64,000 nucleotides of DNA, taken from positions 32,907 to 96,906 of the forward strand of contig JAKFYB010000007.1 in the NCBI GenBank assembly GCA_021731085.1, read 5' to 3'. The notes under the pieces are model-generated. The model did not search any database and was not told the DNA's origin. It saw nothing but the letters and a program-made list of their open reading frames with translations. This document shows positions 16,114 through 36,378 of the stretch, in pieces. The DNA comes from Dehalococcoidia bacterium. GTDB lineage: Bacteria; Chloroflexota; Dehalococcoidia; DSTF01; JACRBR01. Position 1 is the stretch's first letter. Every line of letters starts with the position of its first letter. The translations under genes were made by a program, and so were the position numbers.

Positions 16114-16189
16114 GCCCCCGTAGCTCAGTGGACAGAGCACCGGACTTCTAATCCGACGGTCGCAGGTTCGAATCCTGCCGGGGGTGCCA
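16114..16189 (+). tRNA. tRNA-Arg (anticodon TCT)
   Basis: Manual cloverleaf: acceptor GCCCCCG/CGGGGGT, D-arm GCTC-AGTGGACA-GAGC, anticodon arm CCGGA-CTTCTAA-TCCGA (27:43 mismatch), T-arm GCAGG-TTCGAAT-CCTGC, and an encoded CCA. Length is 76 nt. Confidence 0.9.
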
Positions 16190-30984: not shown

Positions 30985-31485
30985 TCAGCAGTTCGCCGCG
31001 CCCTCGAAAAGCATGGTGTAGTAGATCTTGCCATCGGGTGAGACAGCAACGCCGGTTCCCATGCGAGTGTAGTGGCAGTTCAGGATGTTCTTGAGGTGCG
31101 GGGGGCTGCCCTCCCACATGATGACGGCGCGCTTGGCAGTATTGTCCCAGTCCCAGTTGTTCCAGGCGATGTTCTCGCCGCCCCATGCGTGGGTGTAGCC
31201 GCGGCCATCCATTAGGCAGACGAAGTTGCAGCCGTCCGGCGGGTCGTGGCTAAAGTAGTCCTTCTGGGCCATGTCGCGCGAGCGGATGCGGGCGACTTCG
31301 ACGAGCTGGGCATCCGGCTGAAGCGGCGGCAGGCCATTCTTCGCGCGGATGGCGTTGATGCCCTGGTACGTATAGAGCTCAGCCTTCACTTCCTGGCTAC
31401 AGCCTGTGAGGAAGGCCATGGCGGCCAGCCCAAAGGCGAGCAATGAAAGAACTGCGAGTTTTGTGCCGCGGCGACTCTGGGGCAT
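30985..31485 (-). CDS. CAP/SCP (PR-1-like, YkwD-type) domain lipoprotein
   Basis: Trimmed to MPQSRRGTKLAVLSLLAFGLAAMAFLTGC (lipobox). Motifs INAIRAKNGLPPL, YFSHD and GENIAWN. Confidence 0.8.
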   Translation of the reverse strand: MPQSRRGTKLAVLSLLAFGLAAMAFLTGCSQEVKAELYTYQGINAIRAKNGLPPLQPDAQLVEVARIRSRDMAQKDYFSHDPPDGCNFVCLMDGRGYTHAWGGENIAWNNWDWDNTAKRAVIMWEGSPPHLKNILNCHYTRMGTGVAVSPDGKIYYTMLFEGAANC

Positions 31486-31989
31486 AACCGGCTCCTCTCC
31501 TGAGAAGAGGATCGGCATGGTCGGGGATTTCCTGATGCCCTGTAGGGTAAAACCCTTAAGGAAATGTGAAACCGCAGCTTCGAGGAACGTCATGCCGTGC
31601 CTTTTGCTGTCCCTGCCGGCCGCGCGGCTAACGCGCGTGCGGCGATGCGTGTTGTGAGACCCGCATCATTCATGCCGCTATGGATACCGACGTGTTCGTT
31701 TCGTTCGTTGAGCCGGAACCACCATGCACCGGCGACGGTCACGGTATACCAGCTATGGCCAGGCCGAAACCTTGCATTCCGCAACATCGGCGCGGGATCT
31801 GGGGCGCTATGTTAAGTCCCCTATATGAGCGCAATAGAAAGGCCCAATACATCGAACGAAAAGCCGCATGATGAACTTGACATGATTCTTTCGAATGGAG
31901 GGTTCTGCCGCCGCGAGCGGCGCGGGAACATGAGCCTTCCGCGCGTCGTCGAGAGCACTGAGGGCATGGCACGTGGTCCGAATGACCGC

Positions 31990-32019
31990 TTGACAGCGTT
32001 CTTGAGACGCCCCTAAGAT
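31990..32019 (+). promoter_or_regulatory. sigma70-type promoter (TTGACA-N18-TAAGAT)
   Basis: Perfect -35 hexamer at 31990-31995. The -10 TAAGAT is at 32014-32019. This places the TSS about 20 nt before the riboswitch P1. Confidence 0.55.
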
Positions 32020-32045
32020 CGAACCAGTACAAACGAATATGTAAG

Positions 32046-32157
32046 AGCCGAGTCTCCGTTCGCGGAGAGCGGGGGACCCACCAGGATCCCGGGCTGAACT
32101 CGTCGAAGCGCGAGAGGGGCACCTTCTCCCCTAAGCCGCCAGCTAACCTCGCAGGCT
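32046..32157 (+). promoter_or_regulatory. c-di-AMP riboswitch (ydaO/yuaA class)
   Basis: Conserved blocks are AGCGGGGGACCCA (32068-32080), GGGCUGAAC (32091-32099) and CCGCCAGCUAACCUCGCAGGC (32136-32156). There is a hairpin CUCCG-UUCG-CGGAG (32054-32067) and a closing helix AGCC(32046-49)/GGCU(32154-57). These match the B. subtilis ydaO leader as I recall it. Confidence 0.85.
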
Positions 32158-32158
32158 A

Positions 32159-34042
32159 ATGAAGGTCGGACCCATCCAACACATGGACGACCTTACCCCT
32201 ATCGATCATTCGCACGGAGGCGCTGGCACCCCAGCACAGCCTCATTCGAGAACACGCGCTCGCGCCCGCACCGCGACGAGCGGCTTCCGCGCGGCGTGGA
32301 CCCCAGTTGAAGCGCCAGAGTTCGGCGACGTGCCGGAGACGACGCGCAATGGTGGCTCGTCGGGAGCGCCCGCGTGGCTGGCTCGCGCGGAAGAGGCTGC
32401 GGCACTTGGCCTCACACCACCACAAGCAGCGCTGACGCTCGACCTGCCGCACCTCGCGCAGCCTGTCGTTGATTCGACGACCGCCGTCCGCCAGCGCATG
32501 CACGTGGTCACGTTCGGCGACCGCGTGTTGCAGCGTGTGCTGGAGGCCCTTCCATTTCTTTGTGCGCTGACGTTGATCACGTCACTGGTGTGGGGTGCGA
32601 TCTGGTTTCCGATCGGCCTCGTGATCATGCTGTTGGGGTTCGACGTGTACTGGGCGTGGCGCTCGCTGAACAACGGCGTGCACTCATATCGCGGCTACAA
32701 GGCGATCCAGGCGACTTCCCTGATCGACTGGAAGCGGAAGTACGAAGCGGAAACAACACTCTTGCCGCCCGGCACCGAGCGCGATCTGATCGCTTGGGAT
32801 GACGTGCGCCATCTCGTCATCATCCCGACGTACAAGGAATCGCTGGAAAAACTGCGAGCAACCGTGGGCAAGCTCGCCGAGAGCGAAGTTGCGCACGAGA
32901 AACTGCTCGTCGTGCTGGCGATGGAGGGCGCAGACGCCGAGGCACCGGAGCGGTTCGCGCGGTTGCAACTTGAGTTCGGGCGGAGCTTTCTCGCCTTTGT
33001 GGGCACGACGCATCCGTCGGACATCGTCGGTGAGGTACGTGGGAAGTCATCGAACGAGGCGTGGGCCGCGAAGCAGGCAAAGGTCCTGTTCTGCGACGAG
33101 ATGGGCTTCAGCCTGAATCACCTGACGATCACAAGCTGCGACGCTGACACGCTCTTCCACCCCCGCTACTTCAGCGCGCTGACGTACTACTTCGCGACGA
33201 ACCCGAAGCGCTATCGCACGTTCTGGCAGGGCCCCATCTTCTACTACAACAACGTCTGGGACGTGCCCGCGCCGCTGCGCCTTCAGAACAGCCTCGGTGG
33301 CATCAACCACCTCGCCAAGCTGATGCGAAAGTACGTTGTGCTGTTTCCGCAGTCCACGTACAGCCTCAGCATGCGCATGTGCTACGAGGTCGGGTACTGG
33401 GACGTCGACGTCGTGCCGGAAGACTGGCACATGTTCCTCAAGTGCTTCTTCGAGCTGAAAGGCGAGCCCACCGTACAGCCGATCCTGCTGCCGGTAGGCA
33501 ATGACGGCGTGCGCGCCCACAGTTACAACAAGACGTACTGGGAGCACTACCAGCAGGCGCGCCGTCACGCCTGGGGATGCAGCGACATTCCATACGCACT
33601 GCGCCAGTTTCACCGCCATCCGGAGATCCCGTTTCTGACGCGGCTGCGGCGGACGTGGAGCCTGTCGGAGAACCACGTTCTCTGGTCGGCGCAGTGGTTC
33701 TTGATCACAGGCGTCGCGGCGAACATTTCGGCGGCGTCGTGGGGCGGGTTCCTGGGGTTGCACCCGTTCGCGCAGGCGAACACGCCGGACTGGTTCATCC
33801 AGACTTCGCGCTGGATCCTCATGCCGTGCATGATTCCGCTGGTTCTGATGATCATCCTCGATATGCGGATGCGGCCGCCGCGTCCGAAGCGCTGGCCAAT
33901 CCTGCTGTACCCGGTGCAGTTCGCAATGTGGTTCTTGATGGCGCCGATCACGCTGTTCTTCACCGCGATGCCGGCGCTCGATGCGCAGATCCGGCTCTTC
34001 CTCGGTCGGCGGCTCGAGTACAAGGTGACCGAGAAGGCCTGA
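32159..34042 (+). CDS. membrane-embedded family-2 glycosyltransferase (processive polysaccharide synthase-like)
   Basis: There are 2 TM segments before and about 4 after a cytoplasmic GT-A domain. Motifs are VIIPTYKES, TSCDADT, PEDWHMF and QQARRHAWG (QxxRW-like). The low-complexity N-terminus of about 113 aa makes the start uncertain (alternative Mets at 32183 and 32498). Confidence 0.75.
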   Translation: MKVGPIQHMDDLTPIDHSHGGAGTPAQPHSRTRARARTATSGFRAAWTPVEAPEFGDVPETTRNGGSSGAPAWLARAEEAAALGLTPPQAALTLDLPHLAQPVVDSTTAVRQRMHVVTFGDRVLQRVLEALPFLCALTLITSLVWGAIWFPIGLVIMLLGFDVYWAWRSLNNGVHSYRGYKAIQATSLIDWKRKYEAETTLLPPGTERDLIAWDDVRHLVIIPTYKESLEKLRATVGKLAESEVAHEKLLVVLAMEGADAEAPERFARLQLEFGRSFLAFVGTTHPSDIVGEVRGKSSNEAWAAKQAKVLFCDEMGFSLNHLTITSCDADTLFHPRYFSALTYYFATNPKRYRTFWQGPIFYYNNVWDVPAPLRLQNSLGGINHLAKLMRKYVVLFPQSTYSLSMRMCYEVGYWDVDVVPEDWHMFLKCFFELKGEPTVQPILLPVGNDGVRAHSYNKTYWEHYQQARRHAWGCSDIPYALRQFHRHPEIPFLTRLRRTWSLSENHVLWSAQWFLITGVAANISAASWGGFLGLHPFAQANTPDWFIQTSRWILMPCMIPLVLMIILDMRMRPPRPKRWPILLYPVQFAMWFLMAPITLFFTAMPALDAQIRLFLGRRLEYKVTEKA

Positions 34043-34189
34043 TCTAGTTCGTGGCTCGTAGTTTTTGGTGATGGTTCACCAGTCGTGTTCGCTGGCTCGT
34101 GCCAAGGAATAGCGCTTGACGATGTGCGCCCATTTCTTGGCGCATCGCCGAATCATTGCTCGTCTCACCCTTTCGCCATGATCGCGCGT

Positions 34190-34206
34190 TGATCACAATG
34201 ATCACA
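34190..34206 (+). promoter_or_regulatory. tandem direct repeat TGATCACA-A-TGATCACA abutting the start codon
   Basis: The repeats lie at 34190-34197 and 34199-34206. The last base is the A of the ATG at 34206. Confidence 0.25.
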
Positions 34207-35069
34207 TGACACGATCAGCACACGCACCACTTCGTATCGATCTTGCCGGTGGCTGGACGGACGTCCCTGCATTCGCCGACGAAGATGGCGGCGCGGTCGT
34301 CAACGTGACGATCAACAAGTACGTGCGCGCGACGCTCGGTGAAGATGATGCGCTGACGTACGAACGCGATGTGCCGGCCGCCGGACTCGGCGCGTCGGCG
34401 TGCGAGCATGTGCTGGCGGAGGCGTTGCGCGATCCGGACGCCGATCTCGATGACATCGCCGAGCGCGCGTTCGCGGCGGAGACGACAGAGGGCGTCGTCG
34501 GTGGGCGGCAGGATCAGTACGCCGCGTGCTATGGCGGCCTGAACTACATGCAGTTCGTCAAGCCAGTGCGCGGGCGTGGGCCGGTGCAAATCGAACGTCT
34601 CGAGATGCCGGAATCGCATCTTGCGGGCCTCGAGAAGCGACTCGTGCTGGTCGATAGCGGTGTGCAGCGGCTGTCGGGCGACATCCATAAAGCCGTCTGG
34701 GGCGCCTACTCCCGGCACGATAACGAAGTGACCGGCGCGCTGCTCTCGCTGAAGACGCTTGCGAAGGCGATGCGCGACGCGATCGCGGGCAGCGACTTCG
34801 GCGGCATCCGCCAGGTGATCGCCGAGAATTGGATCCAACAGAGGCGCTTGCACCCATCGGTCACGAACGCGGACGTCGAGGCGCTGTTTGACGTGGCGAT
34901 GCGCAAGGGGGCGAGCGCCGGGAAAGCCTGCGGCGCGGGCGGCGGCGGCGCCCTCGTGTTCTACGCATCTTCGGATGCGGACGGGGTGGCGCTGCGGCAG
35001 CATCTGCGTGGCGAGGGCCTGGCAGTAGTCAATTTCGGCTTCGTGACGGAAGGTCTTGAGGACCTGTAG
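34206..35069 (+). CDS. GHMP-family sugar kinase-like protein (HddA/fucokinase-type N-terminus)
   Basis: APLRIDLAGGWTDVP...GGAVVNVTINKY, plus the C-terminal GASAGKACGAGGGGALVFY. The protein is short (287 aa) and its motif II is degenerate (PAAGLGASA). Confidence 0.65.
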   Translation: MTRSAHAPLRIDLAGGWTDVPAFADEDGGAVVNVTINKYVRATLGEDDALTYERDVPAAGLGASACEHVLAEALRDPDADLDDIAERAFAAETTEGVVGGRQDQYAACYGGLNYMQFVKPVRGRGPVQIERLEMPESHLAGLEKRLVLVDSGVQRLSGDIHKAVWGAYSRHDNEVTGALLSLKTLAKAMRDAIAGSDFGGIRQVIAENWIQQRRLHPSVTNADVEALFDVAMRKGASAGKACGAGGGGALVFYASSDADGVALRQHLRGEGLAVVNFGFVTEGLEDL

Positions 35070-35139
35070 GCCGACTCAGCCGGTCGGGCTGCCTGCTACC
35101 ATTCGAGCATCGGTTAGACGAGACGAGAGGGCTCCCACG

Positions 35140-36378
35140 ATGGAACGGACACGCGTCGTCATCACGGGCATAGGCGCCATCACGGCGATCGGAAACGACG
35201 CCGAGACGTTCTGGCAGGCGCTCGTCGCCGGTACCAACGGCATCGGCCCGATCACCCTATTCGACGCGTCGAAGCACTCCGTACGCATCGCCGGCGAAGT
35301 TAAGAACTTCGAGCCAACCGACGTAATGGACTACAAGACGGCGCGACGCTCGCACCGTCTTTCGCATTTGGCCGTGAAGGCCGCACGCGAGTCTCTCAAT
35401 TCCGCGAAGATCGAGCTGAACGATGAACTGGCGCGCGAGATAGGCTGCATCATGGGGACTAGCGGCGGCGTGTTCGACATGGGCAACCAGGAGCTTGTGA
35501 TCGAGACGCGAGGGCCGAACAGGGTCGACCCGCTGATTATCCCGAAGCTGGGACCTCACATGGCATCCGGCCGCATCGGCCGGGAGCTCGGCTTGCGTGG
35601 GCCCAACAGCTCGATCGGCAGCGCCTGCGCCAGCGGTACTGACGCGCTGGGCCACGCCTGGGCGATGCTGCGCAACGGCGACGCCGAGATCATGCTTGCC
35701 GGCGGCACCGACGCAATGATCCATCCGGTCACCGTTGGCACGATGGCCTTGATGGGCGCGCTGGGCAAGGACTACAACGACACGCCGGAGAAGGCATCGC
35801 GCCCGTTCGACCTGCACCGTGACGGCTTCGTGCTCGGCGAGGGTGCGGCCGTGCTCGTGCTCGAGACGCTGGAGCACGCACAATCACGCGGCGCGACGAT
35901 CATGGCTGAGTACATCGGCCACGGTTGGTCATTCGATGCTCTCGATGACGCCGCGCCGGACGCTGAGGGTCAGTCTCTCTCGATGGCACGCGCGCTGAAG
36001 TCCGCGCAGATCGCGCCGGACGAAGTCTCGTGGATCAACGCGCACGGCACGGGCACGCCGTACAACGACCGCACGGAGACGAAGGCGATCAAGATGGCGT
36101 TCGGCGAGGCCGCGGCGTACAAGATTCCGGCGAGCAGCATCAAGTCGATGATCGGCCACAGCACAGCCGCGGCGGGCGCGATCGAGGCCGTCGCGTCCGT
36201 GTTGGCGATCCGCGACAACAAGATCCCGCCAACGATTAACCTCGATACACCTGACCCGCAGTGTGACCTGGACTACGTGCCGCACGTCGCGCGCGACGCA
36301 AAGGTCGATACGGTGCTGAGCAACAGCTACGGCATGGGTGGGCAGAACAGCACGCTGGTGTTTCGACGATTCAGCTAG
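35140..36378 (+). CDS. fabF: beta-ketoacyl-ACP synthase II
   Basis: Trimmed to MERTRVVITGIGAITAIG. The active-site Cys is in SIGSACASGTDA, with His motifs NAHGTGTPYND and KSMIGHSTAAAG. Confidence 0.88.
   Translation: MERTRVVITGIGAITAIGNDAETFWQALVAGTNGIGPITLFDASKHSVRIAGEVKNFEPTDVMDYKTARRSHRLSHLAVKAARESLNSAKIELNDELAREIGCIMGTSGGVFDMGNQELVIETRGPNRVDPLIIPKLGPHMASGRIGRELGLRGPNSSIGSACASGTDALGHAWAMLRNGDAEIMLAGGTDAMIHPVTVGTMALMGALGKDYNDTPEKASRPFDLHRDGFVLGEGAAVLVLETLEHAQSRGATIMAEYIGHGWSFDALDDAAPDAEGQSLSMARALKSAQIAPDEVSWINAHGTGTPYNDRTETKAIKMAFGEAAAYKIPASSIKSMIGHSTAAAGAIEAVASVLAIRDNKIPPTINLDTPDPQCDLDYVPHVARDAKVDTVLSNSYGMGGQNSTLVFRRFS

Follow-up and report, generated by a model that had tools for sequence, protein, structure and literature searches.

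A stretch of 64,000 nucleotides (nt) from an uncultured Dehalococcoidia bacterium, the whole of which we call the window (GCA_021731085.1, contig JAKFYB010000007.1, positions 32,907-96,906 of the forward strand; GTDB lineage Bacteria; Chloroflexota; Dehalococcoidia; DSTF01; JACRBR01), carries a ydaO-class riboswitch for cyclic di-AMP (c-di-AMP) directly before a gene for a membrane glycosyltransferase of family 2 (GT2). The linkage between this riboswitch and this gene is near-universal in the Dehalococcoidia/Chloroflexota relatives that we examined. In their leaders, the 3' strand of the aptamer's pseudoknot doubles as the left arm of a hairpin that acts as a predicted terminator or covers the start codon. 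From the logic of these secondary structures we favor, with moderate confidence, an ON switch in which a ligand-promoted pseudoknot competes with the terminator/start-codon hairpin.

We called aptamers in the whole window and in its relatives with Rfam covariance models at their curated gathering thresholds. RF00379 was the one riboswitch found in the window, at 78.8 bits against a gathering threshold of 38 (E = 1.2e-16) and over model positions 1-134 of 134. By this full-length model match the leader RNA is a genuine ydaO-class c-di-AMP riboswitch, as claimed in the original prediction, an earlier note written by a model from the sequence of this locus. The features listed there within 32046-32157 are all present: helix P1 (AGCC 32046-32049 with GGCU 32154-32157), a CUCCG-UUCG-CGGAG hairpin, and the blocks AGCGGGGGACCCA, GGGCUGAAC and CCGCCAGCUAACCUCGCAGGC; the hairpin and the blocks fall on conserved positions of the RF00379 model. 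The promoter ascribed to the riboswitch is likewise confirmed, as TTGACA-N18-TAAGAT is the only sigma-70-like site across 31500-34400 (chance expectation 0.7), with identical hexamers in about 25 related species, near-consensus ones in about 50 more, and a similar distance to P1. Transcription is predicted to start near 32026, about 20 nt 5' of P1. The aptamer is placed as a cis-regulatory element, on the same strand as the open reading frame (ORF) that it would regulate and with the promoter on its other side, in 76 of 78 assessable loci.

These loci come from a scan with one genome per GTDB species, which returned 80 GT2 loci with 43-78% protein identity, all of them from metagenome-assembled genomes of Dehalococcoidia/Chloroflexota; two (L059 and L065) are cut by a contig end and were left out. 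RF00379 lies directly upstream of the GT2 gene, on the same strand, in 76 of the 78 species-level genomes, so the linkage proposed for the window is conserved in homologous genomes. In 75 loci the match exceeds the gathering threshold, with 70-95 bits except for a 5'-cut copy in L060 (38.5 bits), and a further 5'-cut copy in L029 was counted as the 76th. No aptamer was found upstream of the GT2 gene in L074 and L075 when these were searched to E <= 1. The two represent a groundwater Chloroflexi GT2 subclade without the riboswitch, at about 45% identity (L074, 1265-2797 and 2842-4497; L075, 359-2020); in L074 the GT2 gene sits 45 nt after a 510-aa ORF that has no Pfam match. Six neighbors in the window were checked (a GDSL lipase, an alpha/beta hydrolase, a CAP/YkwD protein, a GHMP-kinase-like protein, FabF and an S8 protease), and none recurs beside the GT2 gene among the 80 related loci; conserved operon partners were rejected on this ground. 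Because no neighboring gene is conserved, the unit consists of a promoter, a riboswitch and one gene.

The leader analyses below cover the 76 aptamer-bearing leaders, and the comparison of start codons covers 27 loci of the close clade. The original prediction had the riboswitch fused to a start codon at ATG 32159, which does lie 1 nt past P1. Comparison with relatives speaks against the fusion. The close-clade loci have TTG where the window has this ATG, in frame in 14 of 27 and out of frame in 13, and several of them have an in-frame stop between that position and the conserved start. In L201, an independently assembled locus whose leader is 97% identical and whose synteny is the same, an additional base between the two positions shifts the matching ATG out of frame. 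We therefore rejected ATG 32159 as the start. The methionine at 32183 is M9 of the 627-aa ORF that begins at 32159; it is nearly invariant in the protein alignment, most homologues begin at this MDDL, and an ATG (GTG in L014) occurs 20-26 nt after P1 in 27 of 27 close-clade loci. Since a W47-E-P49 motif is conserved (P49 is invariant, W47-E48 is present in most of 20 aligned sequences), translation begins upstream of 32297, and a start downstream of 32183 is excluded because there is no start codon between 32183 and the motif. We also rejected M114 (ATG 32498) with GGAGG 32217-32221 as its Shine-Dalgarno (SD) sequence: the conserved motif lies upstream of M114, and no in-frame start codon occurs between the GGAGG and the motif. 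On this comparison the real start is ATG 32183 rather than a codon far downstream, and the adjacency of P1 and ATG 32159 is a coincidence of one lineage. The GGAGG belongs to CACGGAGG (32214-32221), about 60 nt after P1 in the coding region, where the codons CAC GGA GGC (His-Gly-Gly) create a perfect GGAGG that is kept at the nucleotide level in the close clade (L001-L024, L031, L039). Its conservation may stem from a protein motif (VHGG..P.IKP) or from a place in an RNA structure, or the site may act inside the gene as an SD-like pause or standby site.

Between P1 and the conserved start lies GAAGGU, which is complementary to ACCUUC in the P7 loop. A pairing of 6-8 bp between P7 loop and 3' tail is present in 76 of 76 leaders, and its strands change in step between clades (ACCUUUC/GAAAGGU, ACUUUCC/GGAAAGU, AGCCUUC/GAGGGCU, GCCUUUC/GAAAGGC). 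Cognate loop/tail duplexes average -9.17 kcal/mol against -7.55 +/- 0.25 kcal/mol for permuted ones, with 0 of 2000 permutations as good (relatedness uncorrected). Fixed-column pair counting was dropped because the MAFFT alignment shifts the register of P7 loop and tail between clades. At equivalent positions, a crystallised construct (4QLM, quoted in PMC5393176) carries CUCCUUC as its loop and GAAGGAG as its 3' tail. Judged by sequence, the pairing in the window is the known pseudoknot of the class, and single-molecule Förster resonance energy transfer has shown that c-di-AMP promotes its formation (PMC11963983). GAAGGU is also the only SD-like element upstream of ATG 32183, at a long spacing of 16 nt, and we only infer that it serves this start as an SD. 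The original prediction recognized GCAGG (32151-32155, inside P1) as the sole SD-like run, which is wrong: GAAGG at 32161-32165 follows P1.

The same strand takes part in a second structure. Directly after P1, all 76 leaders can form a hairpin of -10 kcal/mol or lower; the close-clade version reads GAAGGUCGG..loop..CCGACCUU, and elsewhere the sequence differs while the pairing is kept. At least 5 U in 8 nt follow the hairpin in 70 of the 76 leaders, so in most relatives hairpin and U-run together make an intrinsic terminator. A strict terminator definition holds in 63 of 76 leaders. The left arm begins within 10 nt of P1 in 63 of these 63 (median 3), and in 62 it shares 4 nt or more with the pseudoknot strand. 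When the pseudoknot nucleotides are kept unpaired, the hairpin loses stability, its mean energy changing from -15.7 to -6.5 kcal/mol and that in the window from -11.5 to -3.6 kcal/mol. In the close clade the start codon is inside the upper stem and right arm, so that the N-terminus M-D-D-L-F-S (ATG GAC GAC CTT TTT TCx) is encoded by the terminator's right arm and U-run. The window hairpin (-12.2 kcal/mol, z -2.8), a homologue of the relatives' terminator, is part of the minimum-free-energy fold of the whole leader, and its upper stem, CCAU/AUGG, fully pairs AUG 32183. Here the U-run is gone (CGACCUUACCCC, encoding MDDLTP), and the independent assembly L201 has lost it as well. Distant clades have a clean order of aptamer, terminator, spacer and SD, with SD and start 40-150 nt beyond the terminator. 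We found no third element before the U-run of the GT2 leaders that could be used as an anti-terminator. Nor did these leaders show a canonical OFF platform, defined as a terminator apart with an anti-terminator or as an SD in the pseudoknot with no competing hairpin. In some distant clades (L052 at about 990-1080; L053, L058 and L069 at about 2870-2930; L030 at about 2100-2125) sequence past the U-run could pair with the loop and right arm of the terminator, for example UUCGUGAUUCGGG ... CCCGAAUCGCGGAA, which suggests an extra refolding step in the read-through mRNA, ahead of a strong SD.

As a background we took other c-di-AMP aptamers from metagenome contigs by exact matching to the conserved CCGNCAGCTAACCNCG block. 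This gave 120, of which 98 were usable, and none of the 120 stands before the GT2 family studied. A terminator within 105 nt is present in 17 of the 98, its left arm starting a median of 27 nt after P1. In 13 of these 17 the terminator leaves the pseudoknot strand entirely free, and just 2 share 4 nt or more with it, so this layout occurs in 2 of 98 background aptamers. Aptamers before Kup, KtrA and KamA-like genes keep their terminator apart. The background aptamer closest to the GT2-leader type (L182; 88% identity to the aptamer of L040, GC fraction 0.67) has the canonical layout of three elements, in which a terminator stands apart, downstream of the pseudoknot strand, and has in its 3' part a complement to it. 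Since the control set and this most similar aptamer show the canonical layout, the overlap is a property of the GT2 leaders and not of the class or lineage. Two control aptamers, L093 (minus strand, about 600 nt from a contig end) and L169, have the pseudoknot strand within the terminator's left arm, one before a NuoB/hydrogenase-small-subunit-like ORF and the other before a Veg-like ORF, and could be additional riboswitches of the ON type. L182 (minus strand) and L177 are high-GC c-di-AMP riboswitches of canonical OFF layout before small zinc-ribbon proteins (CPRC...C..CG, about 70-85 aa), a type of target unnamed in the reviews searched.

According to a rule from the Breaker laboratory, an aptamer that overlaps the terminator stem indicates an ON switch and one that stands apart indicates an OFF switch; an OFF output was validated for a c-di-AMP switch where, only in the absence of ligand, the left shoulder of a distant terminator is paired with nucleotides of P1 and the pseudoknot (PMC9337991). 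In the GT2 leaders one strand, GAAGGU, serves both structures, so pseudoknot and terminator are mutually exclusive, and from this shared strand the rule predicts ON. The strand 3' of P1 would thus pick between two partners, the P7 loop in the pseudoknot or the downstream complement in the hairpin. In the relatives, hairpin and U-run would form without ligand and transcription would terminate; with c-di-AMP the strand would be docked in the pseudoknot, the terminator blocked and the gene transcribed. In the window the ligand-free hairpin would sequester AUG 32183, and c-di-AMP, by way of the pseudoknot, would open the hairpin and expose the start codon, so that translation is gated by the same competition. 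The window looks like a translational version of the terminator logic of its relatives. The OFF mechanism of the original prediction, with P1 sequestering the SD, gives way here to a separate, conserved hairpin platform whose left arm is the pseudoknot 3' strand, an arrangement that predicts ON. For the wider proposition, a natural ON-type riboswitch throughout a class of soil and groundwater Chloroflexota through which high c-di-AMP directly induces a hyaluronan-synthase-like glycan synthase, we see the chances as evenly balanced.

Several points weigh against an ON switch. The support for its direction is of a single kind, the logic of secondary structure. Natural c-di-AMP riboswitches are stated to give an OFF output (PMC11963983); reviews and case studies report OFF for every one tested so far, and the literature searched, outside which lie Block 2010, Nelson 2013 and the crystal papers, holds no natural ON member. 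As the window has no U-run, the transcriptional mechanism is derived from the relatives only. The ligand-bound state places the sole SD-like element of AUG 32183, GAAGGU, inside the pseudoknot, so ribosomes in the close clade would have to initiate with a weak SD or none, or depend on breathing of the pseudoknot. Taken by itself, the pseudoknot duplex (-8 to -13 kcal/mol) is less stable than the hairpins (-12 to -20 kcal/mol), which makes an ON output dependent on co-transcriptional order and on stabilization by the ligand. Finally, pseudoknot covariation was assessed from per-sequence duplex energies and a permutation control that leaves relatedness uncorrected, and because the register slides between clades no fixed-column alignment stands behind these figures.

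The alternative with the most in its favor is a conventional OFF switch, in which the ligand closes P1 and the pseudoknot, buries GCAGG (for AUG 32159) or GAAGG (for AUG 32183) and represses the synthase; we consider it unlikely. It would agree with all characterized natural c-di-AMP riboswitches, and switches of the Thermoanaerobacter type do use the pseudoknot 3' strand as an SD. The conserved AUG has the SD-like GAAGGU 10-16 nt before it, and AUG 32159 abuts P1. The loss of the U-run in the window means that the hairpin there could be a relic. However, AUG 32159 is unconserved, and its counterpart is out of frame in the nearest relative. The strand GAAGGU forms the terminator/start-codon hairpin when ligand is absent, which leaves an OFF switch with no ON state. 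In the distant clades, SD and start are beyond the reach of the pseudoknot, 40-150 nt past the terminator, and the GT2 leaders have no anti-terminator before the U-run, whereas the canonical OFF leaders of the control set have one.

We find it rather improbable that the output is complex, either combining ligand-dependent read-through with SD masking (a band-pass or pulse) or acting mainly on mRNA stability through the hairpin. Such behavior could arise in the close clade, where hairpin and pseudoknot jointly involve the SD-like strand, the start codon and the terminator, and in the distant clades the terminator loop of L052 and L053 is complementary to sequence past the U-run; yet the simpler ON model covers all clades, including the distant ones with their clean order of aptamer, terminator, spacer and SD. 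Decayed regulation in the window lineage, with the U-run lost in the window and L201, largely constitutive expression and the aptamer as a leftover, is the most doubtful of these alternatives, given that the aptamer retains a score of 78.8 bits, that neither pseudoknot nor hairpin is disrupted and the upper stem has been remodelled to pair AUG fully, that the P7-loop change of L201 retains pseudoknot pairing through a G.U pair, and that several other relatives that have no U-run likewise keep a hairpin of -10 kcal/mol or lower.

Table 1. Positions of the riboswitch-GT2 unit and its parts in the window (TM, transmembrane; pLDDT, predicted local distance difference test).
Feature	Position	Strand	Details
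-35 box TTGACA	31990-31995	+	same hexamer and relative position in close clade, near-consensus in distant loci
-10 box TAAGAT	32014-32019	+	18-nt spacer from -35; conserved in relatives
c-di-AMP riboswitch aptamer, RF00379	32036-32173	+	P1-to-P1 core 32046-32157
Pseudoknot 5' strand ACCUUC	32121-32126	+	loop of P7-type hairpin GGGG 32116-32119 / CCCC 32128-32131
First in-frame ATG	32159-32161	+	1 nt after P1; not conserved
Pseudoknot 3' strand GAAGGU	32161-32166	+	3 nt after P1; also left arm of platform hairpin
Platform hairpin	32162-32194	+	7 bp AAGGUCG/CGACCUU + 4 bp CCAU/AUGG, 7-nt loop
Conserved start codon, M of MDDL...	32183-32185	+	26 nt after P1; M9 of 627-aa ORF
GT2 membrane glycosyltransferase gene	32183-34042	+	619 aa from ATG 32183; stop TGA 34040-34042
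N-terminal extension	32183-32503	+	Ala/Pro/Thr/Gly/Arg-rich, poorly conserved, pLDDT <40 (20-homologue model)
Two N-terminal TM helices	32525-32641	+	residues ~123-161
GT-A catalytic domain	32801-33628	+	IPTYKE 32822-32839, SCDAD (DxD) 33134-33148, PEDW (ED) 33416-33427, QQARRHAW 33551-33574
C-terminal helical membrane region	33656-33988	+	interface and TM helices, residues ~500-610

The ORF 32159-34042 (627 aa) matches PF13632 (Glyco_trans_2_3) with 41.6 bits against a cut-off of 27, and no NCBIfam model matched it. Its motifs begin at residues 222 (IPTYKE), 326 (SCDAD), 420 (PEDW) and 465 (QQARRHAW) in the numbering of the 627-aa ORF. Hydrophobic segments at 123-161 (two helices) and 553-607, together with amphipathic helices from about residue 500, give a topology of two N-terminal and about four C-terminal helices. 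The motifs DxD (SCDAD) and ED (PEDW) do not vary. The QxxRWAWG of the wider family reads QQARRHAWG, with H for W, in the clade of the window. Residues 1 to about 115 are of low complexity; beyond them conservation is high as far as LEYK.TEKA, an invariant motif at the C-terminus. The N-terminal extension, which is missing from most distant members of the family, is probably disordered and cytoplasmic. An AlphaFold2 model of residues 116-627 built on 79 diverse sequences (pLDDT 94.3, predicted TM-score 0.93) has a Rossmann-like GT-A core; it replaced a poor earlier model from 20 close homologues (pLDDT 55). Its best Foldseek matches in the PDB are the hyaluronan synthases (HAS) of Chlorella virus and Xenopus, PcManGT and BcsA, with E values of 7e-9 to 1e-7, TM-scores of only 0.41-0.53 and high root-mean-square deviation. 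A sequence search of the PDB with two profiles gave nothing significant (best PcManGT, E 0.046). By profile match and model, the protein is a GT2/PF13632 member with a GT-A fold. The Pfam score and the model bear out the membrane GT2 that had been proposed, and the helix topology and best Foldseek matches would fit the processive-synthase architecture, a GT domain joined to a channel-forming bundle of TM and interface helices. The best reading of that model is a stand-alone HAS-like synthase-translocase, a putative member of the processive synthases.

Homologues number more than 1000, and the named ones are called 'glycosyltransferase family 2 protein [Dehalococcoidia bacterium]'. At E <= 1e-3 the wider family extends to 2667 representatives, with other Chloroflexi, Patescibacteria and a dinoflagellate transcript among them; its distant members are all named 'hypothetical' and none is characterized. 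Among these are a protein from Patescibacteria (P0276) and one of 1000 aa from the transcriptome of Polykrikos kofoidii (P0238), a eukaryotic form in which the GT2 is fused to an N-terminal region of about 400 aa.

Around the unit, a CAP/YkwD-family secreted protein (30985-31593, minus strand) is encoded divergently upstream of the riboswitch promoter, with synteny only in L201. Downstream, a GHMP-kinase-like ORF (34206-35069) matches only the C-terminal two thirds of HddA/fucokinase profiles, lacks the N-terminal approximately 100 residues, and overlaps by 14 nt the start of the gene for FabF (beta-ketoacyl-ACP synthase II; 35056-36378). This pair follows the GT2 gene in L201 as well and in no other relative. 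Elsewhere in the window, Rfam calls a tRNA gene at 16114-16186 (70.8 bits), whose anticodon loop, CUUCUAA, indicates tRNA-Arg(UCU).

As targets of c-di-AMP riboswitches, the literature searched names only transporters, osmolyte genes and wall hydrolases and no polysaccharide synthase, in line with the original prediction, which did not count one among the known targets. The target here is a stand-alone, uncharacterized membrane GT2 family that is linked to the riboswitch in at least 76 species-level Dehalococcoidia genomes. The unit offers a handle on the envelope biology of a largely uncultured, environmentally abundant class and a testable link from osmotic/K+ signalling to glycan synthesis. 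If the ON direction is true, a natural ON architecture would extend the regulatory repertoire of a riboswitch class regarded as OFF-only and would provide ready-made natural scaffolds for ON biosensors. It would show that c-di-AMP induces genes as well as represses them, and would couple a messenger of turgor and K+ positively to the production of envelope or extracellular glycan, a logic resembling osmoregulated periplasmic glucan synthesis at low osmolarity.

Compared with other processive or membrane GT2s, namely class I hyaluronan synthase (7SP7, 8SMN), BcsA (4P00, 9B8V), chitin synthase and PcManGT (6YV7), the enzyme resembles the HAS/BcsA type in two predicted N-terminal TM helices, the GT-A domain, predicted C-terminal interface/TM helices and the DxD, ED and Q-x-x-R-(W/H) motifs; its gene stands alone, as does that of HAS. 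It differs from that type in having no significant sequence match to solved structures, an H for the W of QxxRW, and a probably disordered N-terminus of about 115 aa. Judged by its sequence, the RNA is an RF00379 member with a variant expression platform. It shares the aptamer, all helices and the pseudoknot with the described members (B. subtilis kimA, Dehalobacter ablA, Streptomyces rpfA, C. glutamicum nlpC). Those are OFF switches, in which the terminator stands apart and P1/pseudoknot nucleotides provide an anti-terminator, or the pseudoknot masks the SD, whereas in the GT2 leaders the pseudoknot strand itself is the terminator's left arm. Their targets are K+/osmolyte transporters or wall hydrolases, in contrast to the GT2 synthase found here. 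The Geobacter cyclic GMP-AMP (pilM) and Na+-I (kefB) riboswitches are ON switches in which the 3' part of the aptamer overlaps the terminator stem and the ligand prevents termination, although their aptamer folds and ligands are unrelated to those of the GT2 leader. The engineered biosensor 'ON-riboCdA' (Chen et al., Sci Adv 2025) is turned ON by an artificial stem-loop after P1 that competes with the pseudoknot (PMC11963983), and its logic is like that proposed for the window: c-di-AMP shifts the balance to the pseudoknot, so that the stem-loop opens and the initiation region becomes accessible. The loop measures 7 nt both in its best design and in the window hairpin, on a stem of 11 bp in the former and 7+4 bp in the latter. 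ON-riboCdA is artificial and purely translational, while the natural GT2 leaders would mostly use an intrinsic terminator and the window would sequester its start codon.

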